NCBI GenBank assembly: GCA_003246455.1
Contig: QKAF01000027.1
Location: 33,201-97,200 of the forward strand
From: Bacteroidota bacterium
Lineage (GTDB): Bacteria; Bacteroidota; Ignavibacteria; SZUA-365
DNA: 64,000 nt
Direction of reading: 5' to 3'
Part shown: positions 27,833 through 56,697 of the stretch, piece by piece
Numbering within the stretch: the stretch's first letter is position 1
How the letters are laid out: each line of letters opens with the position of its first letter
Position numbers and translations under genes: made by a program
Notes under the pieces: model-generated
The model's database searches: none
Told to the model about the DNA's origin: nothing
The model's input: the letters and a program-made list of their open reading frames with translations, nothing else

Positions 27833-27929
27833 TGACGAGGTTCTTTTCTCCGCGACTTCGAAGACCTGCTCCGCATTGGTGGCATATCAGAATAACATAG
27901 CGGATGAAACGGAGAAAGGCAATGCAAAA

Positions 27930-29417
27930 TCAGCGTCGCGTCAGGCGACGGAGCAGCAGGCGTATCTCGTCTCGCTCCTGAGGCAGGAAAAATCCGCTTG
28001 CCCAGAGTACCCCGCAGAAGAGGGCAATGAGCAGCAGCTGCCAGATCATTGCGGGGAGGAACGCCGGGACGGGAACGAGATACCAGAGCAGTGCGCTGAC
28101 GGTGAGCGCGGCGGTGATGCGAAGCAGGCGCCCGGTTTCGTATTGGATCGGATAGATCCGGCGGCCGGCCACGGCGTAGAAGACCGCGATGCTGAAGTAG
28201 GCGGCGAAGGTCGCGAAGGCGCCGCCGTAGAGGCCCCAGACCGGAATGAGGAGGTAGTTGCAGGCGATGTTGATCACTGCCCCCATGCCCGTGGCATAGA
28301 GCACGTGCATGGTTTTCCGTTCGATGTAGATCCCGGCATTGAGAATCTGTCCGACCCCCGCCCAGAGGTAGCTGAAAAGGATGATGGGGACTATCCCGAT
28401 ACCGCTCCAGTAATCCTGCTGGATCAGTACGCGGCCGCCCGGCAGCGGGATGCGGACGATGTCGCCGATGAACAGCGAGAGTGTGAGTACGATCAGCGCG
28501 CCCGCAAGGACGAAGTAGGTGAGGACCCGCGCGAAAAGGCGCTTGGCTTCCTCGCTGGATGCCAGCTGCAGATAGAACGGCTGCCAGGCATAGCGAAACA
28601 TCGAAACCACCAGCATCATGAAAATGCCCAGTTTGTAGTTCGCCTGGTAGATTGCGACAGTCGACCAGTCGGTGAGCTGCTTCATGATCGGCTTGTCGAT
28701 GATTTCGATGAGCATGATCGCCATGGCGCCCGGCATGGTGGGCAATCCGTATACCAGGAGATCGCGGAGCAGGCGCCTGTCCATCCCGCCGCGTCCGTGC
28801 GAGACGATGGTGGGAATCAGAAGGAGGGTCGAACTCAGCGAGGCGATCACACCGGAGAGAAACACCGTGCTGACGGACCAGTGCAGGAAGCCGATGAACA
28901 GCACGTTGAGCGCGACGTTGATGACGATGGACACCAGCTTGACCGACGCAAAGAAGCGCGGCCGGTTTCCCATCCGCAGAGCGGCGAAAGGAATGATGTT
29001 GAACGCGTCGAGCACCACCATCGCGATGGCAAGCGGCACGACGTCCCCGAGATTGCTTCCGATATCCAGGAGTGACTGTACCCGGGGTCCCAGCAGAAGG
29101 ATCACGCCCCCGAACAGCACCGAGGCAATGCCGATAAACCATATCGAGCTGCTGAAAATGCGATTGCGGCCGTTGACGTCGGATCCGGAGACGAATCGCA
29201 TGTATGCCGGTTCGAGCCCGAAAGTGAATACGGCGTTGAGAAAGGCGATGTAGGAGTATACGACGGCGACGATGCCGTATTCCGCCTGCGGCAGCGTGTG
29301 CGTATAGAACGGCACGAGCAGGAAGGTGATGAATCGTCCCAGCACGTTGCTGATGCCGTAAAACGCGGAATCGGATGTCAGTCGCTTCAGCTGTTCTTTC
29401 ACCCAGGCAAGATACAT
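27930..29417 (-). CDS. Polysaccharide/oligosaccharide flippase (MOP superfamily, Wzx-like).
   Basis: About 495 aa with ~14 TM and typical Wzx hydrophobic periodicity. Start taken at MYLAWVKEQ. Confidence 0.6.
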   Translation of the reverse strand: MYLAWVKEQLKRLTSDSAFYGISNVLGRFITFLLVPFYTHTLPQAEYGIVAVVYSYIAFLNAVFTFGLEPAYMRFVSGSDVNGRNRIFSSSIWFIGIASVLFGGVILLLGPRVQSLLDIGSNLGDVVPLAIAMVVLDAFNIIPFAALRMGNRPRFFASVKLVSIVINVALNVLFIGFLHWSVSTVFLSGVIASLSSTLLLIPTIVSHGRGGMDRRLLRDLLVYGLPTMPGAMAIMLIEIIDKPIMKQLTDWSTVAIYQANYKLGIFMMLVVSMFRYAWQPFYLQLASSEEAKRLFARVLTYFVLAGALIVLTLSLFIGDIVRIPLPGGRVLIQQDYWSGIGIVPIILFSYLWAGVGQILNAGIYIERKTMHVLYATGMGAVINIACNYLLIPVWGLYGGAFATFAAYFSIAVFYAVAGRRIYPIQYETGRLLRITAALTVSALLWYLVPVPAFLPAMIWQLLLIALFCGVLWASGFFLPQERDEIRLLLRRLTRR

Positions 29418-30455: not shown

Positions 30456-30555
30456 TCCCCAGTATTTCCGTGGGGTATCCGGAATCCAACATGATCCGCG
30501 GTGCCCCTTCCCCCCGCCTTCTGAGCGAAAAAATCGTATGTGAATCATTCGCACG

Positions 30556-30578
30556 TCGCGTGAATTTATTTCACGCGA
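30556..30578. promoter_or_regulatory. Inverted repeat TCGCGTGAA-tttat-TTCACGCGA inside an AT-rich island upstream of the motor-like cluster. Candidate operator.
   Basis: 9-5-9 perfect inverted repeat. The surrounding 30540-30700 is ~60% AT in a ~62% GC genome. Confidence 0.4.
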
Positions 30579-30601
30579 ATAGTGCGATAATCGGACACTT
30601 T

Positions 30602-30625
30602 GGCGTTTTTTTAAGTAAAAACGCC
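30602..30625 (+). terminator. Hairpin GGCGTTTTT-ttaagt-AAAAACGCC followed by a T-rich tract. Probable terminator of the epimerase gene.
   Basis: Perfect 9-bp stem, followed by GATTTTCATTT. Confidence 0.45.
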
Positions 30626-30699
30626 GATTTTCATTTGGCATGATTTGTGAACGATAATTAGCGATTGATTTAGCTCCTCACCATCTAGCCAACACGCAT

Positions 30700-31467
30700 T
30701 TGCTGAGTACATCAGAAACAGTCAAGGATCTCGAGGTATTCGAAGGCCGACGCCTGCTGCGCGACTTCTATCATGAGCGCAGAGTAAAGAATGCCATCGA
30801 GGCCAAGACGCTGCTCGAATGCTGGAAACTGTGCCGCCGGGGTACCGAGGTTCATTTCAGCGACGGACGGCGCGTTCGGCTGGAGACCAATCTCGGCGTA
30901 CGGCTGGGCACCCGCATTTTTCTCGAGGAGATCGTCAGCAGGAACCATTACAATTCCATCCAGGGGCTGGTGTACGCCGGCGCGATGATCGTCCTCCTGG
31001 CGGTTGCGATGTATCTCGCAGGGTATACGCTGTGGATCGCAATGGGGGCGTTTCTGCTCGAGGCGCTTTTCCTGCTGCTCCTGGCGATGGTGACGGCCTA
31101 CAGTCCCGTTGACGACACCGCCGCGAGCGGCGTCTCCCTGGGCCTGTCGGAGAATCTGCTGACCTCGATCAACAGTTCGATCCACGAAATGACCAACGCG
31201 GTATCAGATCTTTTTCGGCTGATCTCGCAGACGGATATCCGGCAGGATGTGCTGCTGACACGGCTCACCGAGAACATCAGCAAGCTCAACGCCGAAAACA
31301 CGCGCAAGTATTCCGAGAAGCTGGAGCAGACCAACGCGCTGCTGCGGGAGCTCAATGAGAATTCCCGCGCGCAGCTGCAGAGCATTCTCCAGCAGCAGCA
31401 GCAGTCGATGCAGCAGACGCGCCGCCTCATCGCCCTCATGGACCATAACGACGAGGAACCGGCATGA
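30700..31467 (+). CDS. GldL/PorL-like (ExbB/TolQ-superfamily-like) inner-membrane motor subunit, copy 1 (L1).
   Basis: Two adjacent TM helices (LVYAGAMIVLLAVAMYLAGY / WIAMGAFLLEALFLLLLAMVTAY) with a Glu in the second TM, matching the GldL VYGxGAA / G..EAL pattern. Long coiled-coil Q-rich cytoplasmic tail. The table start is a TTG. The true start is uncertain. Confidence 0.5.
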   Translation: MLSTSETVKDLEVFEGRRLLRDFYHERRVKNAIEAKTLLECWKLCRRGTEVHFSDGRRVRLETNLGVRLGTRIFLEEIVSRNHYNSIQGLVYAGAMIVLLAVAMYLAGYTLWIAMGAFLLEALFLLLLAMVTAYSPVDDTAASGVSLGLSENLLTSINSSIHEMTNAVSDLFRLISQTDIRQDVLLTRLTENISKLNAENTRKYSEKLEQTNALLRELNENSRAQLQSILQQQQQSMQQTRRLIALMDHNDEEPA

Positions 31468-31538
31468 CGGCCGCCGGCGCAGCCCCGGGTAACGCCGCCA
31501 TCAACAGTCCGCGCGGCCGCGCCGCGGAGGTTTGACGT

Positions 31539-33044
31539 GTGGCACAGCGGAAACGGATCGACATCTTCTTCATTCTCTACCTCACCGCGATACTCGGTTT
31601 CGTGGTTGTTTCGAGGGAACGCGATAAAATCGATGAAGGAATGCATGAACTGAACGAACAGATCGTCCGGACGTTTGTCCCCCCTGTTCCGCTGAGACCG
31701 GAGGGCGACACGCTGCGTTGCTATGTCGACGCCGATTCGAACGGCATCGTCATCGGCGACCCGCGGGTGTTCGAGACGAAAGTGTTCGCTGGCGACATCA
31801 CCCCGGACGATGCGGTTTCCCTCTCCCTGCACAGTGTCATTCACGACGGGACGCTGACCACGCCCGATATCGTCTCGATCGGACCGCGCACGGCCGCGGG
31901 CGAAATAGCCGACCAGGAAGTGTTTTTCCCCGTCACCGGACTGTTCCCGCGTACCGGCGTCTATCATGTCAACATCGCGGCGAAGGCCCGACGGGTGCAT
32001 GAAAGCAGCCCGGGCGTGTTCGTCTACCGCGGAAAGCAGTTTGACACGTCGCTCGTCAGCCGGGAGATGATCGCTTCGGTGGAACAGTCGCGGCTGACGA
32101 TGACCGTGGTCGTCGAAGACACCTCGCTCGATCATATGACCTCCCTCCAGAGCCTGCAGATCGAGGCGGCGCGTGCGGAGATCACCTCCGCGATCGGATT
32201 CGAAGAGCGCAACACAGTCACGATCAATCTCGGCTGGGCCGCGCCGACGATGACCATCGTGCGCGGGGGAGGGCAGCTTCGCGAACTCACCCGCACTGAT
32301 CGCATGGTGGAATATGTCTGGAGCGGCGCGGTCACGAGCATGCCGTATACCGTCGAGATCGAGGCGCGCGCGAACCGCGGCGCCGGCGGTCGGGACATTG
32401 CCCGCACGCGTTTTTCCGTGTCCGGAATTCAGCCGTTTCTGCGTATGGCTCCTCCCGACATGGTGTTCGCCGGGGAGGATATCAATTTCGATATCAGCGT
32501 CGAGGGACTCGATAATCCGGCCCAGTACAGCTGGCGGCTGTTCGAGGAAGTCGGGCAGGGAGAACCCCTGCTGAAAATGGAGGGGCGCGGTTCACGGGTC
32601 GCCTACCGTATCCCGAACTCCTACGCCGACAAGCATCTCGTGGTCGAGGCCCGGTATAACGGCCGTCCCTATCGTTTCATCTCCCGCGCGTCGTATGCCT
32701 CGGGCAGCTCCCGCTTTGCCCTGCCGGTTGTCGAACCGCCCACGCGCATCGGGCTGGACCTGCCCGCGCGCGCAGCCGCGACGGCATCGTTCCGTTTCAC
32801 CGCATCGAAATACAATGACATCCGTTTCCGCGGCGAGCAGCCGATCGACCGCCTCGCCGACGTGCAGGTGGAACTCACCAATGAGGAAGGGAACGTGCTC
32901 GCCTCGGACGTATGGATGATGCGGAAAGGAGAATTCGAGTTTTCGCTCGAAAATCGTACGTCCATCCGCAAAGGCGGAGAGAGAATTATCGTCCGGATTC
33001 ACGCCGGTGGAAACACCGCGCAGCGCAGCATTCAGCTGTATTAA
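31539..33044 (+). CDS. GldM/PorM-sized bitopic periplasm-spanning protein with an ExbD/TolR-like acidic TM residue, copy 1 (M1).
   Basis: 501 aa. N-terminus MAQRKRIDIFFILYLTAILGFVVV is a single TM resembling the ExbD/TolR IDV-hydrophobic motif. Followed by a ~450-aa periplasmic beta-rich region. Confidence 0.5.
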   Translation: MAQRKRIDIFFILYLTAILGFVVVSRERDKIDEGMHELNEQIVRTFVPPVPLRPEGDTLRCYVDADSNGIVIGDPRVFETKVFAGDITPDDAVSLSLHSVIHDGTLTTPDIVSIGPRTAAGEIADQEVFFPVTGLFPRTGVYHVNIAAKARRVHESSPGVFVYRGKQFDTSLVSREMIASVEQSRLTMTVVVEDTSLDHMTSLQSLQIEAARAEITSAIGFEERNTVTINLGWAAPTMTIVRGGGQLRELTRTDRMVEYVWSGAVTSMPYTVEIEARANRGAGGRDIARTRFSVSGIQPFLRMAPPDMVFAGEDINFDISVEGLDNPAQYSWRLFEEVGQGEPLLKMEGRGSRVAYRIPNSYADKHLVVEARYNGRPYRFISRASYASGSSRFALPVVEPPTRIGLDLPARAAATASFRFTASKYNDIRFRGEQPIDRLADVQVELTNEEGNVLASDVWMMRKGEFEFSLENRTSIRKGGERIIVRIHAGGNTAQRSIQLY

Positions 33045-33287
33045 CAGTACTGAGAAATAGAAAACATGTCTGACGGATTTGACTTGAATATGAAGATTGT
33101 GCGAGATTGTTGTGATAGTGAATGCGCGACAGCAACCCGCACGTCCTTTCGCCCTCGGACAAGAGCATTTCCCAATACGGCAGTTCATGCAACAACGCTT
33201 CAAATCGACACAGTACATATACAAATTAACAGTGTCCCGCTCCCGGCGGTGACAGCTCATCCTATGTCTTGTTAGGAGGTTTTCCTT

Positions 33288-34121
33288 ATGAAGAGTAGTG
33301 GATTCATTCGCCACCTGTTGCTCGGTACTCTGCTGATCGCAATCGTCACTGTTTTCGCGGCTCCGGTCGTGCACGCGCAGGGCGATGAAATGATGACGCT
33401 TGAGCAAATGAAAATGAAGCTGCGTGACGAAGGCAAGGGTCGCGACCTGAGCCAGCTCACGCATCAAGAGCTCGAGATGATCAAGAAAAGCGACAACGGA
33501 CTGTTCGGCAACCTGTTCAACACCGAATTCGTGATGAAGATCGGAAACTCCACCTTCATCCTGAACATGCTCGCAATCACACTCGTCATCGTCATCGCCG
33601 GGTTTGTCGTTCTCTTCTTCTTTACCCCCATCGGTCTGTTCCTCTTCAGGGGCAGTCTGCATGCCTTCGTCGGTGCGCTGCTGAAGGCATCCGGTGTCTC
33701 GAAGAAATTCGGCGATCACCTGATGAAGGAGCCGAAGAAGTGGCTGCAGAAAGAGAAGAGCGTCCGTCAGGCGTTCGCACTCTACATGCACAACGAATTC
33801 ATCCCCGAGTACAAGAACAACATCACCGCCATTGCCTTCATGGGTACGGCATTCCTTATTCTCAACATCGGTCTCCGCGGCGTGAAGTTCATGACCGCCC
33901 ACCAGCCTGACCTGATCGTTATCGCAATCGTCGTCGAAATCACCGTGCTCCTTCTGCTCGGTATGACGACCTGGTACGAGAAGGAAGAAGAAGAAGAAGC
34001 AGGCGCAGGTGCAGGCATGCCCGGGAAGCAGCTTTCGCTCGCCGACGTCGAACGTCGTCTCGATGCCCTCAAGGCAGAACTCGAGACTTCCGTTCGGACC
34101 GAATCCGGTCTCCGTCAGTAA
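33288..34121 (+). CDS. GldL/ExbB-like motor subunit paralog, copy 2 (L2), with an extra N-terminal signal/TM region.
   Basis: Last two TMs (AIAFMGTAFLILNIGL / LIVIAIVVEITVLLLLGMTTWY) are paralogous to the L1 TMs and include the TM Glu. There is an additional upstream TM, giving an ExbB/TolQ-like 3-TM topology. C-terminal coiled coil. Strong RBS ttaggagg. Confidence 0.5.
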   Translation: MKSSGFIRHLLLGTLLIAIVTVFAAPVVHAQGDEMMTLEQMKMKLRDEGKGRDLSQLTHQELEMIKKSDNGLFGNLFNTEFVMKIGNSTFILNMLAITLVIVIAGFVVLFFFTPIGLFLFRGSLHAFVGALLKASGVSKKFGDHLMKEPKKWLQKEKSVRQAFALYMHNEFIPEYKNNITAIAFMGTAFLILNIGLRGVKFMTAHQPDLIVIAIVVEITVLLLLGMTTWYEKEEEEEAGAGAGMPGKQLSLADVERRLDALKAELETSVRTESGLRQ

Positions 34122-34168
34122 GCAGTTCGCGGACTATGCCAATCAGTAAGAAGAAGGAGTAAGCAACA

Positions 34169-35776
34169 ATGGCTCATACTGCCGACCACTATAAAAAATA
34201 CCAGGTTTACTTCTTCCTGTATCTGGCTGTGATCTGCGAGCTTCTCATCATCATCGTGGAACGCGATGATGCGGAAGCCGACCTGCTTATGCAGCAGCGG
34301 ATGCTGGAAGAAAAGAATCGTAAGATCATTCTCGAGCTCCTCAAGAACATGCCCGCGGTGGCCGCGGCCGGTGACAACCAGCTGAAGGTCAACGAAGAGC
34401 GCAAGTTCACGATCAACGTGAAGGGTCTTGGCGAGAACGATGAAGTGACGACGCCCCCGGAAGTCAAGGTGTTCAAGGACGGTACCGAGATGGGTACCCT
34501 CAAGTACCCGCAGGACATCCAGGATTCCATCGTGCACGGCACGACCGGCGAACGTCTCTATCGCTTCACATGGAAGGCCGAAAGCGGTCCCGGCACCTAC
34601 GAACTGTGGGTGCAGGCCGGAACCAACCGCGTGTCCCTGACTCCGGATCTCGAGCAGGGCGAGGCGAAAATCAAGGTCGGAACGCTCGAATTCTCCCGCA
34701 AGGAGATCCGCTCCGCTCTCGATTCCGACCCGGATCTTCGCGGAACGCCGGTGGAGCACTTCATCGAGAAATCGGAAAATCTGATGCCCGATAAATTCGT
34801 TGTCGAAGTGGTTTCCGAGGAATACGATCAGCTGCAGATTCAGGCAGATCCGATCGTGACCGCCGTCGGCTTCCCGACCTTCAACGAAATCAAGGTTCGC
34901 GGTACCACCGTGGACAAGATCTCCAACATGAATATCGTCGGCGGCGGCGTCGCCCTGCGTCCTGACAACCAGCGCAACCCGTATTACAGCCCGGATCCCG
35001 AGCGCGGCAAGTGGGTGTGGTCCAACACCTACAATGACGCCGGCACGAAGTCCGTCAGTGTCGATGCGCGTGACAACCGCTCCGCGGGCGTCAAGAGCGT
35101 TTCCCGTCCCATCAGCTTCGATGTCATCGTGAAGGAGCCGTACCTGAGCCGCCGCAAACCGAGCGGTGCGTTTTCCGGCGAAATCTTCGAAATGAACATC
35201 AACGTCGCCGGTCTCGAAGACGTCGGTTCCTACGACTGGACCATCGAGATCGACAACGCGCAGGTGGAGAAGGGCAAAGGCAACGTGGTCAAGTACAAGG
35301 TGCCGGAAGATGCGCTGGGCAAGACCTTGACCATCAAGTCAACCTACAGGAACCGGGTGTACCAGGTACTGGTCGATTCTTCAGCGACGAACCTGACCTC
35401 TTCCGAATTCCTGTTCAACATCACCGCCCCTATCGACCGAATTGGATCGCAGTCCTTCGCGAATGGCGGCGAATACCCGATCAATAACGTCTTCCAGTTT
35501 GTCGCAGCCCGCTGCGGCCGGTGTATCGGATCCAATATCCGTAACATCCAGCCTTCCGACATCCGTGTGGAAGTGGAATCTGAAGACGGTCAGGATCTGC
35601 TTGCCGATACTCCCGAGGTTTTCCAGCGGACGAACCCGAATACCGGGGCAGACCAGGGCAGCCTTGTGAAATTCTATCTGAAGGGCAAAGTCGGCCGCGA
35701 CGGAACCGAGGCGACGATCACAATCCGTTACGGTGCCGTCAATGAGCGTTACACGGTCATGCTCTATCAGGAGTAA
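34169..35776 (+). CDS. GldM/PorM-sized bitopic periplasm-spanning protein, copy 2 (M2).
   Basis: 535 aa. N-terminus HYKKYQVYFFLYLAVICELLIIIVERDD is a single TM containing Glu. Large periplasmic region with Ig-like beta repeats. Confidence 0.5.
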   Translation: MAHTADHYKKYQVYFFLYLAVICELLIIIVERDDAEADLLMQQRMLEEKNRKIILELLKNMPAVAAAGDNQLKVNEERKFTINVKGLGENDEVTTPPEVKVFKDGTEMGTLKYPQDIQDSIVHGTTGERLYRFTWKAESGPGTYELWVQAGTNRVSLTPDLEQGEAKIKVGTLEFSRKEIRSALDSDPDLRGTPVEHFIEKSENLMPDKFVVEVVSEEYDQLQIQADPIVTAVGFPTFNEIKVRGTTVDKISNMNIVGGGVALRPDNQRNPYYSPDPERGKWVWSNTYNDAGTKSVSVDARDNRSAGVKSVSRPISFDVIVKEPYLSRRKPSGAFSGEIFEMNINVAGLEDVGSYDWTIEIDNAQVEKGKGNVVKYKVPEDALGKTLTIKSTYRNRVYQVLVDSSATNLTSSEFLFNITAPIDRIGSQSFANGGEYPINNVFQFVAARCGRCIGSNIRNIQPSDIRVEVESEDGQDLLADTPEVFQRTNPNTGADQGSLVKFYLKGKVGRDGTEATITIRYGAVNERYTVMLYQE

Positions 35777-35839
35777 TCGGTCGTTCGCCTATCATTCATA
35801 CGCGAAGTGGAATATTCAATTCGATTAGAGGATAAGTTC

Positions 35840-37885
35840 ATGAGCAAACAATTTCTTTTACGTGCCTTTCTCTTCGTGGCACTCGTTGTAGGCCTCATGC
35901 CGCAGCTTTTTGCTCAGACCGACCGTGAGGTAAAGAGCAAACAGACGGATCTGAAGCACGAATACAACGACGCCTCTGAGAAAAACCAGATCATCAAGTC
36001 GGCGGCAGAGGACAAGCCGCGTGCGACGACCGGCCGCCGGCGCAGTTCGGCCACGACCGGTTACGATTACACGCAGGTGAAGGGATTTGCCCTTCGCCAG
36101 TTCAACGATCGCATCGACAAGGTGTTCGCCCGCGCCAACGATCTCGGCCTGTTCGAGGAAGAGTACCGTCTCGACGGTACCTTCCCGGTCCCCGGCCGCC
36201 AGGGCAAGGGCAGCGCGCAGATGCGCAAAATCGAGGTGTACTACGTCGAAGCAACGCCCGAGGAACAGGAACAGTTCGATATCGAGCCGTTCCAGATCAT
36301 CGAGGTGTATGTGGAAAAGCTGGAAACCCTGCCGCCTGAGGAAACCGCGGGCGAAACGGAAGAAGGCGGTCTCGGCCTCGGCTTCGACGCAAGCGCGTCC
36401 GAGCCGATCGCAAAGGGATATTCCCTTGCCGGAACCGATCTGACCAGCGTCCTGCAGCTTGCCGACGAAGCACTGTATGACGATATCCTTGCGAAGCGCA
36501 GCCAATCCAATCCGATTCCGCTTCCGGAACGCGGCGACTGGATGCCCGGCAAGGTCGGTCCTTTCATCGTCATGACCCAGCGCGAACTGGAAACCACCAC
36601 GAGTCGTTTCCGTGACTTCTGGAACATGCGCGATACGCTTGAAAGCGCGATCATCCCGCCGCAGTTCGAAGCGGCCGGTCCTTTCTATACCGGCAGCATT
36701 CCGATGTTCTACCCGGAAGCGAGCAAGGTGCGTGTCCGCAACCCGGAACGCAATCAGCCGCTGAAGATCACCAGCGCCGTCTTCGTTGGCGACAATGCCG
36801 ACAAGTGGGAAATCCGCACCAAGCTTCCGAAGGTTCTCGCCGGCAAGGGCGAAGCCAATGACAAGGAAGACATCGAATTCGCCTATATCGGCGGATCGGA
36901 ATACGAAACCCGCGGACAGCTGCTCATCGACGCAAAGGAAGCCAACCTCCAGCAGATCGTCGAGATCGTGTCCAACCCCGGACGGTATCCGGCCGACGTC
37001 GTGACGCTCGATGCGTCGCTCGACCGCGTCGAACTCCGCTCGCCCGCACGTTCCGGCTTCGCCCCGAACTGGAAGCTGGCCTATGTCATCGGCAACGATG
37101 AAGTCGGTCTGCCTCGCTGGTCCACGGGCATTTCCTCCCTCAGCGTGGGATACAAGAATCAGATGAGCGTCGGCGTCGTGCTTCCGATGAACATGACGGC
37201 TCCCGACCTTCCGACGCCGCTGGCGTTCGAGAAGAACCTGATGTCGTCGCCGAGCGGTTACAACGTCGCCTTCGATTTCACGTTCGGCTTCCCCTTCTCC
37301 CTCGGCGGAAACCTGACGGTCATCAACGATTATTCCGCGCAGGATGCGTACGATCACCTGAAGGTCATGCATATGAACTTCGATCCGCAGGTTGACCTGA
37401 AAGACTATGACAACGATTTCTTCCATATCTCCACGATCGCGCAGGTGTACTACCCGATCATGTTCAAGGATAATGCGGTCAATCCCAGTCTCGCATTCCG
37501 TCTGAACCTTGGTGGTGCCTTCATGCAGATCAAGCGAGATCACCTGGTCACCGATGCAGATCCGCTCGGCATGGGCAAGGAAGGCCGCATCTTCAAGACC
37601 GAAGAGATCGGCAAAATGGTCACGCTCGGCAAGGAAAAAGATCTCGTAGACGTGTACATTCGCATGTCCTTTATCAATCTGCGTTCCGCCAACAAGTACG
37701 GCATGGGCATTCAGTATTTCGCCGGCCGCATGATGGCGGATGCCTTCCTTGAACTCACCGAATGGCTGCGCGTGGACGCGAAGTACTCCTTCCTGCTCCG
37801 CGACCAGGAGATCTGGGAGACCGAAAGCAGTTACTTCCTCATCACTCCGCGCCTGCGTATCGGGCTGCCCTCCATTTTTAACTGA
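35840..37885 (+). CDS. Putative outer-membrane beta-barrel protein (OMP-A, ~680 aa).
   Basis: Signal peptide MSKQFLLRAFLFVALVVGLMPQLFAQ. C-terminal alternating hydrophobic beta-strands ending ...RLRIGLPSIFN. C-terminal block paralogous to the next gene. Confidence 0.45.
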   Translation: MSKQFLLRAFLFVALVVGLMPQLFAQTDREVKSKQTDLKHEYNDASEKNQIIKSAAEDKPRATTGRRRSSATTGYDYTQVKGFALRQFNDRIDKVFARANDLGLFEEEYRLDGTFPVPGRQGKGSAQMRKIEVYYVEATPEEQEQFDIEPFQIIEVYVEKLETLPPEETAGETEEGGLGLGFDASASEPIAKGYSLAGTDLTSVLQLADEALYDDILAKRSQSNPIPLPERGDWMPGKVGPFIVMTQRELETTTSRFRDFWNMRDTLESAIIPPQFEAAGPFYTGSIPMFYPEASKVRVRNPERNQPLKITSAVFVGDNADKWEIRTKLPKVLAGKGEANDKEDIEFAYIGGSEYETRGQLLIDAKEANLQQIVEIVSNPGRYPADVVTLDASLDRVELRSPARSGFAPNWKLAYVIGNDEVGLPRWSTGISSLSVGYKNQMSVGVVLPMNMTAPDLPTPLAFEKNLMSSPSGYNVAFDFTFGFPFSLGGNLTVINDYSAQDAYDHLKVMHMNFDPQVDLKDYDNDFFHISTIAQVYYPIMFKDNAVNPSLAFRLNLGGAFMQIKRDHLVTDADPLGMGKEGRIFKTEEIGKMVTLGKEKDLVDVYIRMSFINLRSANKYGMGIQYFAGRMMADAFLELTEWLRVDAKYSFLLRDQEIWETESSYFLITPRLRIGLPSIFN

Positions 37886-37899
37886 AAGGAGGCAGCACC

Positions 37900-39612
37900 A
37901 TGAAGAACCACACAGTATCAAGCACGGAACAACACGGCATGCAGATGAAAAACCGACTTCTTTCGATTCTCGCAGCACTTCTCGTTCTCGCCTGGCTCGC
38001 TCCCAATGCGGCACAGGCCCAGAGCTCGGATGATGCCCTGACGAGCGTCGAGCAGATCATGCGATACATGAAGAGCGCGAATTACTCGGAAGACGATATG
38101 CTCCAGCGCATGGCCTGGGGCGACCAGATCGTCAACGAACTCGTTTCCTTCAAGGCGTCTGAAGACGATCGTCAGAACTATCTCCGTCTTCTCGATATCG
38201 CCATCGATCATTACAAGGACGAGAACGACCGCCTCCGCATTCTTCTGCGTGCGCTCACCACCCTCGATCCCCTGGTGGCGAAGTACTTCCCGCAGTGGGT
38301 GATCCAGGACGAACCGATGATTCTCGAAGTCATGCGCAAGGTCCGTGATAACCGCGACGATCTGCTCGATGCGGACGCCGTCGGTATCGCCGAGCGCGTG
38401 CTCACCGGCAAGGCCCGGATGCGCGTCATCCAGAGCCCGAAAGACGATCAGAACCTGATCGCCATCTACATCGAAAAGGCGCGTCCCCATGACGACGAAA
38501 AGCTTTCTGCCGGCTTCCTGCCGAACAAGGACAACGGCGATTTCGACGACTATCGTATCGTCGGCCGCCGCAACCTTCGTGAGATCCTCACTCCGGACCT
38601 CTACGACGCAGTGGTCGCCAAGCAGTCGTATGCGCATCTCGACGAAACGGGCGCGGTCAAACCGCAGCCGTACGTTGCCGAAGCGACGATCAGCGTTCCT
38701 TTCGGCGGTGGTTTCATGTGGACCCTGGATTCGGACGAGCGCATCGGCGACGGCGTCACGCTGCAGCCTTCGCGCATCCGCGCCGGGTTCGAACTGAAAA
38801 TCGGCAACGACTGGGTGAACCTGCCGTTCCTGTACGGCGCGCAGTGGAATACGCTGTTCGTCTACGAGCCGTCCGCTACCGAGCGGGTCAAGATCGGTCC
38901 GTCCATTCCCTTCACCTGGGGTGACAAGAGCATCTCGGAGAATTTCCCGATCTTCAAACCGCGTACCCTCAACGGGACGTGGGGCGCGGCCGGTGAATAC
39001 TACAAGCAGCTCTCCAACGTCGCGGGCGCACCGGGCGTGGACGCAGACGGAATCGGCGCCGCCGCCTTCGTCTCCTTCGGCCTGAAGACCCTCGGCAACA
39101 AGAAGATCACCAACCTCGACGGTACCATCATCAACGGCGACGGTGCGGAAGCCGCGCTGCAGCTGCCGCTGACCCCGGCGGATGCCCAGAAAGCGCATTT
39201 CTACTACCTCGCGAATTCCGCGAACCTGTTCTACTGGCGTGACCTCGGCTTCATGCTCAGCGGTCTCCGCCTGCATGCCGGTCTCGGATATCAGAAGACC
39301 GTCGAAGCCGTTCGCCAGAATCCGTTCGACCAGCCCAACCAGTCCGCATGGAATCCTGACAGCGTCAGCATCGTCAGCGACAACAGCGTCCTGGATGCGT
39401 TCGTGCGCCTTTCCTACGATCACGGCGGCAAGACCACGTACGGCGTGGCGCTGCAGTATTTCAACGGCGGCGTGATGGGCGAGGTGTACCTCAACATCTT
39501 CAGCTGGATGCGCGCGGAAGTCAAGTACTCGCGCATGCTGTTCCGCGATCCGGAAGTCTGGGAACACGAAGAAATGATCGTGCCCGGCCTTCGCTTTGGC
39601 TTCGCATTCTAA
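37900..39612 (+). CDS. Putative outer-membrane beta-barrel protein (OMP-B, 570 aa), paralog of OMP-A.
   Basis: RBS aaggagg. Signal peptide ...LAWLAPNAAQAQ. C-terminus ...WMRAEVKYSRMLFRDPEVWEHEEMIVPGLRFGFAF ends in Phe (beta-signal). Aligns with the OMP-A C-terminus WLRVDAKYSFLLRDQEIWETESSYFLITPRLRIGL. Confidence 0.45.
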   Translation: MKNHTVSSTEQHGMQMKNRLLSILAALLVLAWLAPNAAQAQSSDDALTSVEQIMRYMKSANYSEDDMLQRMAWGDQIVNELVSFKASEDDRQNYLRLLDIAIDHYKDENDRLRILLRALTTLDPLVAKYFPQWVIQDEPMILEVMRKVRDNRDDLLDADAVGIAERVLTGKARMRVIQSPKDDQNLIAIYIEKARPHDDEKLSAGFLPNKDNGDFDDYRIVGRRNLREILTPDLYDAVVAKQSYAHLDETGAVKPQPYVAEATISVPFGGGFMWTLDSDERIGDGVTLQPSRIRAGFELKIGNDWVNLPFLYGAQWNTLFVYEPSATERVKIGPSIPFTWGDKSISENFPIFKPRTLNGTWGAAGEYYKQLSNVAGAPGVDADGIGAAAFVSFGLKTLGNKKITNLDGTIINGDGAEAALQLPLTPADAQKAHFYYLANSANLFYWRDLGFMLSGLRLHAGLGYQKTVEAVRQNPFDQPNQSAWNPDSVSIVSDNSVLDAFVRLSYDHGGKTTYGVALQYFNGGVMGEVYLNIFSWMRAEVKYSRMLFRDPEVWEHEEMIVPGLRFGFAF

Positions 39613-39739
39613 CGCGAACGCCTTTTCGAACGATTGACATACGTGCAGGCGGTGGACACATCCCATCGCCTGCACATGTTTTTAACCGTGATTTTTTCGA
39701 CAAGGTGGAACCAGCCCGCGATTCAATCCGTTCCGTTCA

Positions 39740-41119
39740 TTGAAACCGCGTGCCGAATCAAGCGTTATGCCCGTTAATACGTTCGTTCCATTATACATTG
39801 TCATCGCCGTTCTTCTCGCCCTGCCGGGAGGGCAGGACCTGTACTCCGCGCCCCAGGCGACAGGGATCCAGCCGGGCGACAGCCTGCGCAAACCGACCAT
39901 CATCTCCGCTCGCAGCAAACACCCCGAAGCCGTTACCGTCTCCATCCGCGCCGTCGACATCAGCCGCTACCCCGAGGTCAGCGTCATTCTCGATGCGCGC
40001 GACTCACTCGGAAATCACTTCCCGAGCCTGAGGAAGAGCGACATGGTGATCTACCAGGACAGCGCGCCGGTGGAAGTGGAATCGCTCGAGAAGATTTCCG
40101 CGAACAACAGTTTCCCCGTCGATATTGCGTTCATCATCGATCAGACGGGAAGCATGTCGCAGGAGGTCTACGAAGTCAAGGCCAACATCATTGATTTCAC
40201 GCAGCGCCTTGCATCCCGCGGAGTGGACTATCGTCTCGCGCTGCTGACATTCAGCGACCGGATCGAACGCTACAAGGATTTCACCGAGGACGTGAAAACC
40301 TTCATCGGATGGATCGACGGGCTGAAGATCGGCGGGGGGATGGACGACAACGAGAATGCGCTGGAAGGGATGTTCGAAGCCACGTCATTCAAATTCCGTC
40401 AGAGTGCGCAGAGGATCTTCATCCTCATCACCGACGCGATGTTCCATCAGAAAGGGGACAAGGGGTACGGGAAAACCGATTTTACCGCGAAGACGATGAC
40501 GGACTTCCTTCTCAAACAGAACATCAAGCTCTTCGCAATCACTCCGCCGCAGATCTCTGAATACAAGTACATGACCGAGGCGACCCGAGGAAAGCGCTTC
40601 AACATCATCGAAGATTTCAGTTCCATCCTCGACGAATTCAGCGAGTCGCTGACGAATCTCTACGCCATCCGGTATCACATCACCGAGGAAGTCCCTCCGG
40701 AAAAAATGAACCTGGAGATTCGCAACTCCCAGGACGAGGTCGTGCTGCAGGAAGAGGTCACCGTGCTCGACGTCGACAAGAAATTCGTGCTGGAGAACAT
40801 CCTGTTCGATTTCAATCGCGCCACCTTCGATATGTCCTATACCGACGAATTGAAGAACATTCTCGCGATGCTGCGCAAGTACGAGAACATTCACATCGAG
40901 ATCCGCGGACACACCGATTTCATCGGAAGCGACGAGTACAATATCGCGCTCTCCGACGCACGCGCCCGCGCAGTGAAGAAATACCTTGTGGACCGCGGTA
41001 TCGGCGAGATGCGGATAACGACGCGCGGCATGGGGAAATCGCAGCCCATCGCGCCAAACGACACCGAACTCGGCCGCCGTCTCAATCGTCGTACGGAAGT
41101 CATCATCACGCGGAAGTGA
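39740..41119 (+). CDS. vWA-domain protein with C-terminal OmpA-like peptidoglycan-binding domain.
   Basis: MIDAS motif DIAFIIDQTGSM...T...D (vWA). C-terminal NILFDFNRATF...HIEIRGHTDFIGSDEYNIALSDARARAV...TRGMGKSQPIAPNDTELGRRLNRRTEV (OmpA_C). Confidence 0.8.
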   Translation: MKPRAESSVMPVNTFVPLYIVIAVLLALPGGQDLYSAPQATGIQPGDSLRKPTIISARSKHPEAVTVSIRAVDISRYPEVSVILDARDSLGNHFPSLRKSDMVIYQDSAPVEVESLEKISANNSFPVDIAFIIDQTGSMSQEVYEVKANIIDFTQRLASRGVDYRLALLTFSDRIERYKDFTEDVKTFIGWIDGLKIGGGMDDNENALEGMFEATSFKFRQSAQRIFILITDAMFHQKGDKGYGKTDFTAKTMTDFLLKQNIKLFAITPPQISEYKYMTEATRGKRFNIIEDFSSILDEFSESLTNLYAIRYHITEEVPPEKMNLEIRNSQDEVVLQEEVTVLDVDKKFVLENILFDFNRATFDMSYTDELKNILAMLRKYENIHIEIRGHTDFIGSDEYNIALSDARARAVKKYLVDRGIGEMRITTRGMGKSQPIAPNDTELGRRLNRRTEVIITRK

Positions 41120-41155
41120 TTGTTACCCGGCAGCAATTGCGCTGGGGCGCAGCTC

Positions 41156-41569
41156 CTATTCACCCATGATTTTAATGATAAGCCGCTTGGGCCGCCGACC
41201 GTCGAACTCGGCGTAGTAAATCTGCTGCCACGGACCGAAGTCGAGGGCGCCCGCCGTGACCGGGACGATCACTTCATGATGCACGAGCAGGCTTTTGAGG
41301 TGCGCGTCCCCGTTTGTCTCGCCCGTCCGATGATGGCGGTAATCGCGACGGAACGGAGCGAGGTATTCGAGCCAGTCGTCGATGTCCTGCAGGAGCCCGT
41401 TCTCGGCATCGTTGACCCAGACGCCGGCGGTAATATGCATTGCGGAAACCAGGATCATTCCCTCGCGGATGCCGCTTTTTCGCAGCGCGTCTTCGACCTC
41501 CGAGGTGATATTGACATACTCCCGCTTCTGCGGGGTGTTGAATGTCAGGTATTCAGTGTGGAATTTCAT
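41156..41569 (-). CDS. YjbQ/UPF0047-family protein (secondary thiamine-phosphate synthase-like).
   Basis: [25 protein letters not shown]...[17 protein letters not shown]...[16 protein letters not shown]. It is only the C-terminal part of the 898-aa table ORF; the remainder of that ORF is an antisense shadow of recD2. Confidence 0.7.
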
Positions 41570-41605
41570 GAACATTCTCCTCAGGCGTGAACGATAGTCA
41601 GAACC

Positions 41606-50354: not shown

Positions 50355-50852
50355 ATGCAAGCGCAGACGCAAGATAAATACACGCTAACCTTCTGGGAGA
50401 AGCTCTACATTCCCGAGATTCTCAAAGGGATGAAGCTGACGTTCGGCCAGATGGTGAAGAAGAAAGACACCCGCGAGTATCCCGAAGAAAAGTGGATTCC
50501 GCCTGCATCATACCGCGGTGCGCCCGTCCTCGTGCAGGAGGAAAACGGCATCGAGCGCTGTGTCGCCTGCGGACTCTGTTCGCGGGTCTGCCCCGCGCTC
50601 GCGATCGAGGTGCAGGCCGCGGAAACCGCGGATGAGAAAGAGCGCTATCCCGAGCGTTTCGAGATCAACATGCTTCGCTGCATTTTCTGCGGATTCTGCG
50701 AAGAAGTGTGTCCCGAGGAAGCGATCGTCATGAGTCCCACCTACGAAATGGTGTTCACCGACTACGAAGACGCCATTCTCGGAAAGGATAAACTGCTCAC
50801 GCCGGTGGAGAAGCTTCGTCCCCGCCTTGAATTTCTCCGCGAGCACCGTTAA
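50355..50852 (+). CDS. nuoI: NADH-quinone oxidoreductase subunit I (2x[4Fe-4S]).
   Basis: CVACGLCSRVCP and CIFCGFCEEVCP motifs. Confidence 0.9.
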   Translation: MQAQTQDKYTLTFWEKLYIPEILKGMKLTFGQMVKKKDTREYPEEKWIPPASYRGAPVLVQEENGIERCVACGLCSRVCPALAIEVQAAETADEKERYPERFEINMLRCIFCGFCEEVCPEEAIVMSPTYEMVFTDYEDAILGKDKLLTPVEKLRPRLEFLREHR

Positions 50853-50862
50853 TCGCATCCCG

Positions 50863-52635
50863 GTGGCCTCCGCGGTTCCCCGCATATATCGATTTCTGGT
50901 AATATCGTCCCTTCTCGGGGCGATATTCCTTTTTCATGGCTGTCTCAGTCTCATCGACGGTATTATCATTCCCGCCCAGGTCAGTCTCGATCAGGAATTC
51001 CTGGTCGCGGTGGACGGCTCCGTGATCGGACACGGGGGCGGAATGGCAGGGCTTGTGGTCCAGGTGCCGGAGAGTTTCGAATTCCTGGGAGCGACGTACG
51101 TCACCTCGTCCGCCAGAAGGGTGCTTCGCCGAAACGGAAACGTGGCCGCGCGCTATCGCGCCGAGAAGGGACACGTGGTGATCGCGGTGGGAGACAGCAT
51201 TCCCTCGAGCAGGGAAACCGACGCGGACGTCCGTGTGCTGCTGCGCTTCGTGCCGAAACAGGCAGGACCTTTTACCGTCAAGTTTGCCAGCGGCGTCGTC
51301 GTCATGCAGAACGGCCGTCTTGCGTGGCGGAGCACGGATCCGGCGGATCTCCGGGATTTCGGCGAGTTGACGGACGAGCGCCTCGTGCGCACGCTGCAGG
51401 TGGTGTACGCGGAGCGGAACGGGACGGCGGCCATCGAACTGGCCGGAAACCGCCAGCATCTGCTGTGTCCCGACAGCGGGCTTTTCCGTCTGCCGCTCGA
51501 CCGCGATTTCACCATCGAGACCTGGTGTGCGACCGTTTCGACAGATGCGCCGCTGATCAGTTCGCGTCCTGACGATTTCAACACGGCCTTCCCGTTCGAA
51601 CTGCGCATATCATCATGGGGAGAAGCGCAGGTGCGCTGTGCCGACGGGCACCACTCGTGGTCGAGTGAGCGGGGGCCTTTCATCGCCGACGGAATGTGGC
51701 ATCATCTTGCGGTCTCATGGTGCAGCGACAGTCTCCGCTACGTGCTCTACGTCGACGGCCACGCGGCAGATACGCTCGCGGTCCCTGAACTGATGCGGGG
51801 AGTTTCCGCAGACCAGCTCGTCATCGGGACAAATCTTCCCCGCACCCAGTTCGTCCGTGCGTCGTTCGACGAACTTCGTCTGTGGGAAACCTGTCGCAAC
51901 GAGCAGGAAATAGCGTATTACCGCGACCTCGCCCTGAGCGGATACGAAACCAACCTCTACGTGCTCTTTTCGTTCGATAACGGGACAGACGGGCACATCG
52001 CCGGGCAGTCGCAGCTCGACAGCCTGTGGCTCTTCGCGTACAACAAACCGCGCCTGGTCGTTTCCACCACGCCGCTGCGCATCGAGCTTCTTGCATTCAA
52101 TGCGGTTCTCGACGAAGACAGCGTCCGGATGAGCTGGGAGACCTACGACGAATCGAAGGTTCGCGGATACGAGGTCGAGAAGCGGCTCGAATCGGGAAAG
52201 TACACCGTGATACATCACATCGAGCCGCTGCGGACGGCGGAACGGCATCAGGAGTACGCCGTCACCGACAACTGGCGGGGGCGCGAAATCGCTTACTACC
52301 GGCTGCGGAAGCTCAATACTGACGGGACCGTTCTGTTTTCCGAGGAGGTCCCGATCGGCACGGAGACCATCCTGAATTTCGTGCTGGAGGACAACGTGCC
52401 GAATCCGTTCACCGAGAGCACGGAAATCCGCTACACGCTGTCGAAGCGCACGCGTGTCGACCTCACCGTGTACGACATCATGGGCAGTGAAATCCGGGTG
52501 CTGGTTTCGGAACGGCAGGAGGCCGGCAGTTACACCGTCGCCTTTGACGGGAGCGATCTTCCGGGCGGGATGTATTTTTACAAAATGCGTACAAGTACTG
52601 GTTCCCAAACAAAAAAGATGTATCTTGCCAAGTGA
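50863..52635 (+). CDS. LamG/concanavalin-A-like-lectin-domain protein with T9SS C-terminal sorting domain.
   Basis: Probable GTG start (VASAVPRIYRFLVISSLLGAIFLFHGC). The LamG-like block contains WHHLAVSW. CTD LEDNVPNPFTESTEIRYTL...GMYFYKMRT. The table ORF start inside nuoI is rejected. Confidence 0.55.
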   Translation: MASAVPRIYRFLVISSLLGAIFLFHGCLSLIDGIIIPAQVSLDQEFLVAVDGSVIGHGGGMAGLVVQVPESFEFLGATYVTSSARRVLRRNGNVAARYRAEKGHVVIAVGDSIPSSRETDADVRVLLRFVPKQAGPFTVKFASGVVVMQNGRLAWRSTDPADLRDFGELTDERLVRTLQVVYAERNGTAAIELAGNRQHLLCPDSGLFRLPLDRDFTIETWCATVSTDAPLISSRPDDFNTAFPFELRISSWGEAQVRCADGHHSWSSERGPFIADGMWHHLAVSWCSDSLRYVLYVDGHAADTLAVPELMRGVSADQLVIGTNLPRTQFVRASFDELRLWETCRNEQEIAYYRDLALSGYETNLYVLFSFDNGTDGHIAGQSQLDSLWLFAYNKPRLVVSTTPLRIELLAFNAVLDEDSVRMSWETYDESKVRGYEVEKRLESGKYTVIHHIEPLRTAERHQEYAVTDNWRGREIAYYRLRKLNTDGTVLFSEEVPIGTETILNFVLEDNVPNPFTESTEIRYTLSKRTRVDLTVYDIMGSEIRVLVSERQEAGSYTVAFDGSDLPGGMYFYKMRTSTGSQTKKMYLAK

Positions 52636-55900: not shown

Positions 55901-56658
55901 ACAGTGACCTCCTCACTCCTGCAATTGCCGCGGGCAACGATATCGCGTTCGTGTACGATCGCAGCGAAAAGGTCGGAACCACGATCCAGGCGATCGACGG
56001 TCTCTACGGCATCACTCGTGCCGCCAAGGTCGATTACTCCAACCTCGAGCTCGCAGCAACCCTGAAGGTCGATCCCAATGCGGTTCCTGACCAGCAGGTG
56101 AAGACCATCGAGCTTCCCGAATTCAGTTCCAAGGAAGATGTGCTGTCCTACATCGCCTCCCAGGATCTGAAGGTCGAAGCACCGGCATCCATGAAGAAGG
56201 ATCGCGTCAATGCAACCAGCTTTGACAACGTGATCTCTGTTGCGACCGGAAGCAAGTACGGTGATATCCGCTTTACCAGCGAGAACATGGGTTCCCTGGG
56301 TGTGATCTACACCTTCCCGGCAAACCGTACGGCGACCGTTGGTCAGCCGCCGGTTACCCCGTCGGGCTTTGCTCTCGAGCAGAACTTCCCGAACCCGTTC
56401 AATCCCTCGACCGTCATTACCTACGCACTGCCTGAGGCAAGTGTCGTGACCCTGCGCATCATCGATGTGCTCGGCCGCGATATCGCGACCCTCGTCAGCA
56501 GCACGCAGAATGCCGGTACCTATTCCATCAACTGGAAGGGTATGGATCAGAACGGCGTCGACGTTCCCTCCGGCAGCTACTTCTACCGTCTCGACGCGAC
56601 GCCGACCTCCGGTGCCGCTGCCTTCTCGAGCACGAAGAAGATGGTGCTGTCCAAGTAA
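52924..56658 (+). CDS. Giant (1244 aa) secreted T9SS C-terminal-sorting-domain protein.
   Basis: Signal peptide MRKLTLLSAVFLLGVLLTQVGFA. CTD LEQNFPNPFNPSTVITYAL...GSYFYRLDAT. RBS ccaggagg. Confidence 0.7.
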   Translation: MRKLTLLSAVFLLGVLLTQVGFANGTYKYVSKPHLRIQAGQTTIDAIYVPVNVAVSDVRVGVYAKTIMYSSLRITLVSPYGNEVVLKQESGNPAATPLFGSLGSSRSMALFQQGGNPLGAQPNDRTLNTATSLSALNGVLSAGWWQIKVVDERNYAASAPPQDGFLEEWSLMFNRQIIEAVQPFNPPVNLVFPGGSTIRGQLNGTTATQTNPNRAQIPNESGNPGLLCNGVGNDPSVVLGVNGDAFPVVISGHPGAIIGQNANGYPAGRFRVTITVETNFAPGSTFITGLTEDIAIYFGRVADGPGILPLPAPPGVGDPGFQAKNASGWPTGAGTVNTLQGGASGLYGGVRLAACISPVPGVDEYGYDRVTFDDYAFDQIAENLPAGPNGGFAGTYRGEQMLNTLNGQPVDGLYYVSVYDCFNDAQLGFGHIRVTYLQVEYIVGGGEVSDPTRHQGFVGPLMGVPIPGGFTGSALGYLTDVVGVVPPYKENAKDQDPILVFWATQKMYPKDATGTERIMAVDQNNYAPPSATHYHGPYAYPGALDADPLVAGAFVNADVLIVPKGDYNLRVNLMQARYDDDLADNEFESSMINVNDVSLSYHGNQVVQWNSFINPLNTGVLASATLAPGQGLGDAFTLFKYPTTQVASVDYRFDRGLVLTPRARVRATVWACNNGYAGAPTTVVARSPYVNMNEYIEGNWRTFPIYPIDANGNADIAAGGSVNLAPGTYVVTIDNGDNQGGLFLVYPYTYGVIPALADRYEDYLFGDLFGPLGPYSTLGTRMTYINTDNTSAPNLSFGTANTTYANFVAPIRVNMTSLNDFAVNYVRWSSQTSHDEAITVGQPVTPIVNVTAASTQNGLTKDFNIYLAVYDGGNNLLYSDMVNVANTGGINGYQTLSINLDPWTPQTGGVYKVKAYFTRNPDDQNPVNDMVEYDLTVLAQPVVMFDPGVSSSQLNEMVEILRSRGTNPVLVNASEGNLSAYKNSTIYVLGNVNSDLLTPAIAAGNDIAFVYDRSEKVGTTIQAIDGLYGITRAAKVDYSNLELAATLKVDPNAVPDQQVKTIELPEFSSKEDVLSYIASQDLKVEAPASMKKDRVNATSFDNVISVATGSKYGDIRFTSENMGSLGVIYTFPANRTATVGQPPVTPSGFALEQNFPNPFNPSTVITYALPEASVVTLRIIDVLGRDIATLVSSTQNAGTYSINWKGMDQNGVDVPSGSYFYRLDATPTSGAAAFSSTKKMVLSK

Positions 56659-56697
56659 GCGGCGGATTCCCCGCATACTAGACAGGAACAGCTGATT

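Follow-up and report, generated by a model that had tools for sequence, protein, structure and literature searches.

Ion-driven stator complexes (Mot, Ton, Tol, GldLM and Zor) are, to our knowledge, the only energy route to the outer membrane in diderm bacteria, and each newly recognised stator family opened a field. The Agl-Glt gliding machinery of Myxococcus joins an inner-membrane motor to bitopic proteins that span the periplasm, the paralogous outer-membrane beta-barrels GltA and GltB, and the vWA protein CglB. For the GldL/PorL-GldM/PorM complexes (PDB 6YS8, 7SAT-7SAZ), functional roles have been reported for Glu49 (Fjo) in transmembrane (TM) helix 2 of GldL and for Arg9 and Tyr17 of GldM (bioRxiv 10.1101/2022.01.28.478170). 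The complete canonical type IX secretion system (T9SS) was detected by TXSScan in Bacteroidetes proper only (PMC4793230), and according to reviews a T9SS 'may' exist in Ignavibacteriota and Chlorobiota (PMC11285876). Here we analyse a stretch of 64,000 nucleotides, called the window, from an Ignavibacteria genome (Bacteroidota bacterium, GCA_003246455.1, contig QKAF01000027.1, positions 33,201 to 97,200 of the forward strand), in which seven genes, named L1, M1, L2, M2, B1, B2 and VO, encode two pairs of inner-membrane proteins, two putative outer-membrane barrels and a protein with a peptidoglycan-binding domain. That this cluster represents a new GldLM-like, ion-driven, envelope-spanning apparatus of Ignavibacteria, Kapaibacterium and related 'Bacteroidota bacterium' lineages is the most economical reading, and its odds are, in our judgement, evenly balanced. 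A search of the available literature returned no description of such a cluster, nor of GldL-like families in Ignavibacteria/Kapabacteria or outside the canonical T9SS; the cluster looks previously undescribed, and six of its seven proteins belong to unannotated families.

The seven co-oriented genes proposed by the initial annotation are real. All of them are open reading frames (ORFs) on the + strand between window positions 30700 and 41119:

L1: 30700-31467, + strand, ORF of 255 amino acids (aa)
M1: 31539-33044, + strand, ORF of 501 aa
L2: 33288-34121, + strand, ORF of 277 aa
M2: 34169-35776, + strand, ORF of 535 aa
B1: 35807-37885, + strand, ORF of 692 aa; gene-caller start ATG at 35840, 681 aa
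B2: 37900-39612, + strand, ORF of 570 aa
VO: 39740-41119, + strand, ORF of 459 aa; gene-caller start at 39767, 450 aa

The starts at 35840 and 39767 are those of the gene-caller annotation on two identical public contigs. Intergenic gaps across the cluster measure 14-71 bp, except for those between M1 and L2 (243 bp) and between B2 and VO (154 bp). When the seven proteins, together with distant homologues of M, B and L, were scanned against Pfam, NCBIfam and PADLOC, the vWA and OmpA domains of VO were the only matches, and L1, M1, L2, M2, B1 and B2 gave none of any weight. The Pfam and NCBIfam scans found Por_Secre_tail, the T9SS C-terminal sorting domain (CTD), in none of the seven proteins, and gldK or gldN gave no match in the cluster or in the scanned parts of the window, in line with what had been claimed from the sequence.

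TM helices and signal peptides were predicted by Kyte-Doolittle scan. M1 and M2 are indeed bitopic proteins of about 500 aa with one N-terminal TM helix each, and they are paralogous over their full length (BLASTP 2e-21, 24% identity). An acidic residue within the TM helix, which had been ascribed to both, is found in M2 as Glu24 at mid-helix (at least 90% conserved); the M1 helix, IDIFFILYLTAILGFVVVS, has no mid-TM acid but only Asp8 at its cytoplasmic edge, is followed by an ERD motif and leads into a periplasmic part of ~470 aa. The TM segment of M2, YKKYQVYFFLYLAVICELLIIIVERDDAE, is nearly invariant, with Tyr18 invariant and Lys10 at least 90% conserved. The M2-type N-terminus reads ...K.YQVYFFLYLAVICELLIIIVERDDAE and takes the form GKVYF[IV]LYLAV[IL]LELLIIIVERD[DE]AE in Kapaibacterium and Ignavibacteria; the segment VYF.LYLAV..ELLI.IVERD.AE is almost identical across classes while the periplasmic part has drifted to ~25% identity. 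Within the M family, mean pairwise identity is 66% in the TM region versus 30% in the periplasmic part. The two types also differ two residues before the [YF]F motif, where M1-type proteins have Asp or Glu (IDIFF, VEVYF, VEIYF) and M2-type proteins Gln or Lys. An AlphaFold2 model of M2 (42-sequence alignment; predicted local distance difference test score, pLDDT, 88.5) predicts a single helix of 56 residues (4-59) comprising the TM segment and a stalk, and beyond it four to five Ig-like beta-sandwich domains in an elongated, periplasm-spanning shape. An RCGRC (CxxC) motif at residues ~447-452 of a periplasmic Ig-like domain is conserved in M2-type proteins and absent from M1; it may be a disulfide or metal site.

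The two-helix signature that the initial annotation had assigned to both L proteins holds for L1, whose TM helices 89-107 and 113-131 form a hairpin of N-in orientation, but not for L2, which has a signal peptide (cleaved between A and Q) and three TM helices. In L1, the hairpin is preceded by a conserved cytoplasmic N-terminal domain of 85 aa; after it come a cytoplasmic helix of high conservation, MTNAVSDLFRLISQTDIRQDVLLTRL, and a coiled coil. An RxxxR motif had suggested that the N-terminal domain is PilZ-like, but this found no Pfam support and was rejected. L2 runs from its signal peptide through a periplasmic segment of ~55 aa, TM1, a cytoplasmic loop of ~60 aa and TM2-TM3 into an acidic C-terminal tail. 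The conserved Glu claimed for the last TM helix is present in both types: Glu217 of L2 is invariant (16/16 sequences), and position 121 in TM2 of L1 is Glu in 16 of 18 family sequences and Gln in the other two. A GLRG.KF motif is likewise invariant in L2 TM2 and TM3, which show a mean pairwise identity of 74% versus 39-50% in the remaining L2 regions. L1 and L2 are related at the profile level only (hhalign 86%, E=5e-6; reciprocal HMM matches of 1e-5 to 1e-3), the common core being a short pre-TM segment (YyN.IqGlvY.GA versus YKNNITAIAF.GT) and the TM hairpin with its Glu. With the parts that L2 adds to this core (a signal peptide, a periplasmic stretch, one more TM helix and a loop on the cytoplasmic side), its topology is that of ExbB/TolQ. 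The two pairs, which the initial annotation called duplicated, are ancient paralogues and not the product of a recent duplication. The membrane helices of M and TM2-TM3 of L2 look like functional cores, not simple anchors, since they are conserved far above the soluble parts and carry conserved charged residues in or at the helices.

When the L1-family profile was compared with the PDB, GldL (7sax_C) was the top match (E=0.079), with L1 87-133 lying on GldL 11-59 and the TM2 Glu in register. A profile built from 47 distant L-like representatives, the 47 weakest of the 97 matches introduced below, found the same chain as the best natural protein (E=6.3e-4), behind designed coiled coils only. 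HMMER and hhalign both aligned Glu121 of L1 with the TM2 Glu of GldL, and the conserved last-TM Glu of both L types is in register with GldL Glu49. With the hairpin alone, the real score of 19.1 was reached by none of 150 full column shuffles (9.9 +/- 2.3) and by one of 200 block-preserving shuffles (10.7 +/- 2.4). On these alignments a remote relationship of L to GldL is plausible but unproven. M, by comparison, is not a GldM: full-length and N-terminal M profiles retrieved no GldM, PorM, ExbD, TolR or MotB chain from the PDB. Lys10...Tyr18-Leu19 of M2 can be aligned by eye with Arg9...Tyr17-Leu18 of GldM, which gives a lead; the alignment has no statistical support and the Arg is not conserved.

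B1, B2 and VO each start with a signal peptide. The claim that two of the genes encode paralogous outer-membrane barrel-like proteins is borne out by BLASTP (7e-14) and by hhalign of clean ortholog sets (98.8%, E=6e-17), which relate B1 to B2; residues 481-687 of B1 align with 381-568 of B2, i.e. with the C-terminal half of the barrel (~200 residues). The predicted model of B2 shows a helical domain (~50-170), an alpha/beta domain (~173-250) and an outer-membrane beta-barrel of ~14 strands (261-569), closed and antiparallel, with the C-terminal aromatic signal in ...GLRFGFAF and a resemblance to FadL- and PorV-type channels. Since its C-terminal region is homologous to this modelled barrel, B1 probably forms a barrel as well, behind a periplasmic N-terminal region of ~450 aa. 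VO proved to be the vWA-OmpA protein announced by the initial annotation, passing the Pfam thresholds for both VWA (PF00092; 3.8e-11, 44 bits, cutoff 23.8) and OmpA (PF00691; 2.8e-21, 76.1 bits, cutoff 27.2). Its signal peptide, which contains no lipobox Cys, is followed by a beta-sandwich, the vWA domain and the peptidoglycan-binding OmpA_C domain. A DxTGS motif resembling a metal-ion-dependent adhesion site (MIDAS) is kept in the vWA domain of 21 of 26 family members, and Pal, YiaD and PorE models match VO over the OmpA_C part alone, all below their equivalog cutoffs.

In a scan of one genome per GTDB species, 295 stretches were found to encode M relatives. Every homologue comes from a metagenome-assembled genome (MAG) with the label Bacteroidota, Ignavibacteria, Kapaibacterium or Chlorobiota and bears the name 'hypothetical'. 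The order L1-M1-L2-M2-B1-B2-VO is preserved in ~20 genomes, down to ~40% identity, and at ~25% identity MAGs of Kapaibacterium and Ignavibacteria still show M-B1-B2, often together with VO, between unrelated flanks (e.g. ribE upstream). An exhaustive HMMER search of 1.84 billion representatives with the L1-family profile gave only 97 matches. We inspected the contigs of four distant L-like representatives: in three of them the L-like gene is directly followed by an unannotated protein of ~480-535 aa with the M N-terminal motif, and the fourth contig ends right behind the L-like gene. The M-like partners of distant L-like proteins carry the motif VE[VI]YF[IV]LYL (L083:1628-6492; L086:807-4417; L087:5230-7325; L088:267-1664), and in L083 two barrel-like proteins of ~400 aa come after M, giving the order L-M-B-B. 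The initial annotation had called for a check of neighbourhood conservation in related genomes. Because these combinations recur in distant genomes, L-M and M-B-B(-VO) are, on gene order, linked modules and not chance neighbours. The MAGs of Kapaibacterium and Ignavibacteria encode extra L2-M2 pairs (L029-L036 and L038) and lone M2-like paralogues (L016, L021, L028, L039), both away from B and VO genes, and one locus has the order L1-M1-M2'-L2-M2 (L024, 4837-11611); judged by these homologues, each genome has a small multigene family of motor-like pairs. The gene directly upstream of the L-like gene in L086 encodes a response regulator with an HD-GYP (HD_5) domain, and L088 and L076 (8313-9737) encode L-like proteins of ~470 aa with long N-terminal extensions.

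The organism itself uses type IX-style cargo signals, since at least five proteins of the window carry Por_Secre_tail (14605-16650 on the - strand; 16952-18997, 50827-52635, 52924-56658 and 56696-58081 on the + strand). One of these CTD proteins has 1244 aa and a P-domain, another a Laminin_G_3 domain.

Compared with GldL/PorL-GldM/PorM, the locus shows several parallels. L1 is a small N-in protein with two TM helices, the second of which holds a Glu, and with a coiled-coil tail in the cytoplasm; its gene adjoins that of a bitopic M protein of ~500 aa with a highly conserved N-terminal TM helix (basic residue and Tyr) and an elongated multi-domain periplasmic part. The host is a member of the FCB group and has CTD proteins. 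However, both L proteins have parts that GldL lacks, namely an N-terminal domain in L1 and a signal peptide and TM1 in L2; M lacks the helical D1 domain of GldM (D1 followed by D2-D4) as well as the GldM Pfam domains (PF12081/PF12080), and M2 carries a mid-TM Glu, and Lys at the position of GldM Arg9. Unlike gldKLMN, the cluster has its L-M pairs duplicated and contains two outer-membrane barrels and a vWA-OmpA protein in place of gldK, which encodes an FGE-sulfatase lipoprotein, and gldN. With ExbB/TolQ, L2 shares an N-out start, TM1, a loop in the cytoplasm, an acidic residue in TM2-TM3, and a C-in end; the acidic residue of M1-type proteins near the cytoplasmic end of the TM helix recalls ExbD/TolR, the cluster includes a gene for a peptidoglycan-binding OmpA_C protein, as Tol-Pal does with Pal, and as in Ton/Tol the work would presumably be delivered to outer-membrane barrels. 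In contrast, the cluster proteins have no sequence match to any Ton or Tol family, M consists of ~500 aa of Ig-like domains and has neither the ExbD/TolR fold nor a TonB/TolA rod, and the barrels differ from TonB-dependent receptors in having ~14 strands (B2 model) instead of 22, periplasmic N-domains and no plug.

The Agl-Glt machinery parallels the cluster in its combination of parts, which in the cluster are the motor-like pairs with their bitopic proteins, the paralogous barrels and a vWA protein. It belongs to another phylum and homology was not detected, no search specific for it having been made, and CglB is a surface lipoprotein, whereas the vWA domain of VO is fused to a periplasmic OmpA_C domain. 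Like PorE and proteins of the Pal/YiaD type, VO has a bona fide OmpA_C domain (PF00691); unlike PorE it contains no TPR, WD40 or CRD domains and no lipobox, and the N-terminal beta-sandwich with vWA is specific to the VO family.

The analysis shows the genes with their topologies and domains, the paralogy of the pairs and of the barrels, the recurrence of the modules and the strong conservation of the TM segments, and, as models, the barrel of B2 and the Ig-like string of M2. From these features we infer the formation and stoichiometry of L-M complexes, their coupling to ions, the contact of M with the barrels, and the output. L1-M1 and L2-M2 would be two paralogous, stator-like and ion-conducting inner-membrane complexes of the GldLM type, in which the polytopic L with the conserved Glu in its last TM helix would surround the N-terminal TM helices of M. 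In the 5:2 motor suggested by the initial annotation, five copies of L would enclose two of M. To such a complex the M helix would contribute Lys or Arg at the cytoplasmic edge, the conserved Tyr, an acidic residue and the ERD motif. Ion flow through L-M would set M in motion, and its helical stalk and Ig-like string would span the periplasm to reach the periplasmic N-domains of B1 and B2. VO may tie the assembly to peptidoglycan by its OmpA_C domain and offer its vWA/MIDAS-like site for contacts between proteins, while the output would be work at the outer membrane. Given the many T9SS-type CTD proteins of the organism, this work would most likely serve to move or release surface proteins, in connection with secretion or gliding. 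An output of the T9SS or gliding kind is attractive because of the CTD cargo of the host, the GldL-like L proteins and the restriction of the canonical T9SS to Bacteroidetes proper in TXSScan, although gene neighbourhoods give it no support.

Several results weigh against a GldLM-like, ion-driven apparatus. No L or M protein passes a curated motor model (GldL, GldM, MotA_ExbB, ExbD, MotB), which agrees with the initial annotation in that the cluster fits neither canonical gldKLMN nor Ton/Tol/Mot. Against TIGR03513, the GldL model, L1 scores 12.6 bits with a cutoff of 68.3 (E=0.092), and the model is matched by one of 18 L1-family members and by none of the 47 distant L-like representatives at E<=0.01, so that no canonical GldL is among the latter. 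In hhalign, the L1 family and five GldL/PorL sequences taken from PDB alignments yield P=1.2e-3 at a probability of just 19.5%, and L2 alone shows no link to GldL by hhalign or in its profile search of the PDB. The GldL likeness first proposed for L is suggestive, not proven: the top natural PDB match, the hhalign P value and the shuffle results speak for it, but the curated model and the hhalign probability do not bear it out. In addition, a weak match to Pfam Oxidored_q3 (NuoJ/ND6; best E 0.0016) is seen in 8 of 18 L1 members over hairpin residues 87-135, and since the same two helices match both GldL and NuoJ/ND6, similarity confined to the TM helices of L is ambiguous. The M TM profile matches nothing in the PDB, and the fold of M, as compared by the AlphaFold2 model of M2, has no specific similarity to GldM or PorM. 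Genomic context also counts on this side: among close relatives the flanking housekeeping genes are syntenic as well, and the gene order there is partly plain vertical inheritance for this reason; M has no adjoining L gene in most loci of Kapaibacterium and Ignavibacteria; and when 71 flanking ORFs of 19 distant loci were scanned for T9SS families, the only families to recur were housekeeping ones.

The cluster could instead be the lineage's own, highly diverged trans-envelope core for T9SS or gliding, in which L-M replace GldL-GldM and B1/B2 with VO replace the GldK/GldN ring and PorE. The many CTD proteins, the GldL-like profile of L, the GldM-like size and topology of M and the OmpA_C module that VO has in common with PorE are all consistent with such a replacement, as is the TXSScan result that complete canonical T9SS occur only in Bacteroidetes proper (PMC4793230), with a T9SS merely said to be one that 'may' exist in Ignavibacteriota/Chlorobiota (PMC11285876). 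We nevertheless consider it unlikely, given that the cluster has no GldK or GldN homologue, that M is not of the GldM fold and that no recurrent T9SS families flank the 19 distant loci. A Ton/Tol-like system would have the ExbB/TolQ-type L2 together with M energise the outer membrane at B1/B2, either for uptake across it or to stabilise it, with VO acting like Pal; the topology of L2, the Asp/Glu at the cytoplasmic TM end of M1-type proteins as in ExbD/TolR, the match of the VO OmpA_C domain to Pal models (below cutoffs) and the FadL-/PorV-like barrel of B2 would fit. The sequence link to ExbB/TolQ/MotA and ExbD/TolR/MotB that had been suggested for L and M is nevertheless missing in the Pfam, NCBIfam and PDB profile searches. 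L1 and L2 do not match MotA/ExbB/TolQ (PF01618) at E<=1, a PDB search with the L2 profile brings up no chain of ExbB, TolQ or MotA at E<=10, M1 and M2 do not match the ExbD/TolR (PF02472) or MotB models, and no cluster protein matches MotA_ExbB, ExbD, TonB_C, TolA or TolB even at E<=1. As, in addition, neither B1 nor B2 is a 22-strand TonB-dependent receptor or has a plug domain, we regard a Ton/Tol-like function as very unlikely. Zorya likewise finds little echo in the cluster: PADLOC gives no ZorA match, its ZorB match (8.9e-10) corresponds to the generic OmpA_C part of VO, and NCBIfam ZorA_3 weakly matches 2 of 18 L1 members (0.052).

A complex without any motor, in which the conserved TM helices serve assembly only and the whole is a static envelope scaffold or an adhesion or tethering complex, would account for the unmatched curated motor families, for the Ig-like strings, vWA and OmpA_C domains, which are typical of structural or adhesive envelope proteins, and for the M-B1-B2-VO sets that have no adjacent L in many genomes. 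It appears quite improbable to us, because charged TM segments that stay near-invariant across classes while the soluble parts fall to ~25% identity are unusual for simple anchors, L is always paired with M where it is found, and the last-TM Glu of both L types keeps the register of GldL Glu49. Returning to the GldLM-like apparatus, its most far-reaching form would be that L-M-B1-B2-VO is a new kind of trans-envelope machine driven by the proton motive force, for example the 'missing' motor and outer-membrane core that powers secretion of a type IX-like kind, or gliding, in Ignavibacteria, Kapaibacteria and allied FCB lineages in which no canonical gldKLMN is found, with a stator distantly related to GldL and with the rotor or rod (M) and the outer-membrane partners entirely new. 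We put this forward only as a tentative and rather doubtful proposal.

Two further elements of the locus concern its expression:

Upstream intergenic region: 30456-30699, + strand, AT-rich, presumed promoter region
Hairpin between B2 and VO: 39643-39685, + strand, 13-bp stem (9 GC pairs) followed by a T-run, pattern match only

The upstream region is presumed to hold the promoter of the cluster, and a pattern scan of it found no sigma-70-like promoter upstream of L1. Within it, 30526-30675 has a GC content of 0.37, yet this is just the second lowest 150-nucleotide window of the whole 64 kb and not the only AT-rich island, as had been assumed. A terminator-like hairpin (30600-30627) lies 3' of the upstream epimerase gene. 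The hairpin between B2 and VO may be an internal terminator or attenuator that sets the expression of VO apart from that of the other cluster genes. Rfam and repeat scans of the cluster region gave nothing.

Downstream, the cluster ends at a convergent YjbQ-like gene. A + strand ORF at 41120-41590, which abuts the VO stop, was considered as an eighth gene and rejected as the shadow of this minus-strand YjbQ/UPF0047-like gene (41156-~41575); its conservation in relatives is explained by this overlap. The YjbQ/UPF0047-like gene is read inside a spurious minus-strand ORF of 898 aa. Elsewhere in the window, long ORFs without Pfam match are located at 27876-29075(+), 1008-2198(+), 8587-9735(+), 9779-11146(+) and 12295-13434(-). 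The first of these is syntenic upstream of the cluster in relatives, and its coding strand is uncertain because equally long minus-strand ORFs overlap it.

The lineages in which the cluster occurs carry T9SS-type cargo, yet almost nothing of their machinery for secretion and motility has been characterised. If L-M is not a motor, the cluster would still represent a widespread envelope complex without known function. If L-M is a motor, it would widen the GldLM branch and provide a concrete candidate for powering surface processes in these lineages.

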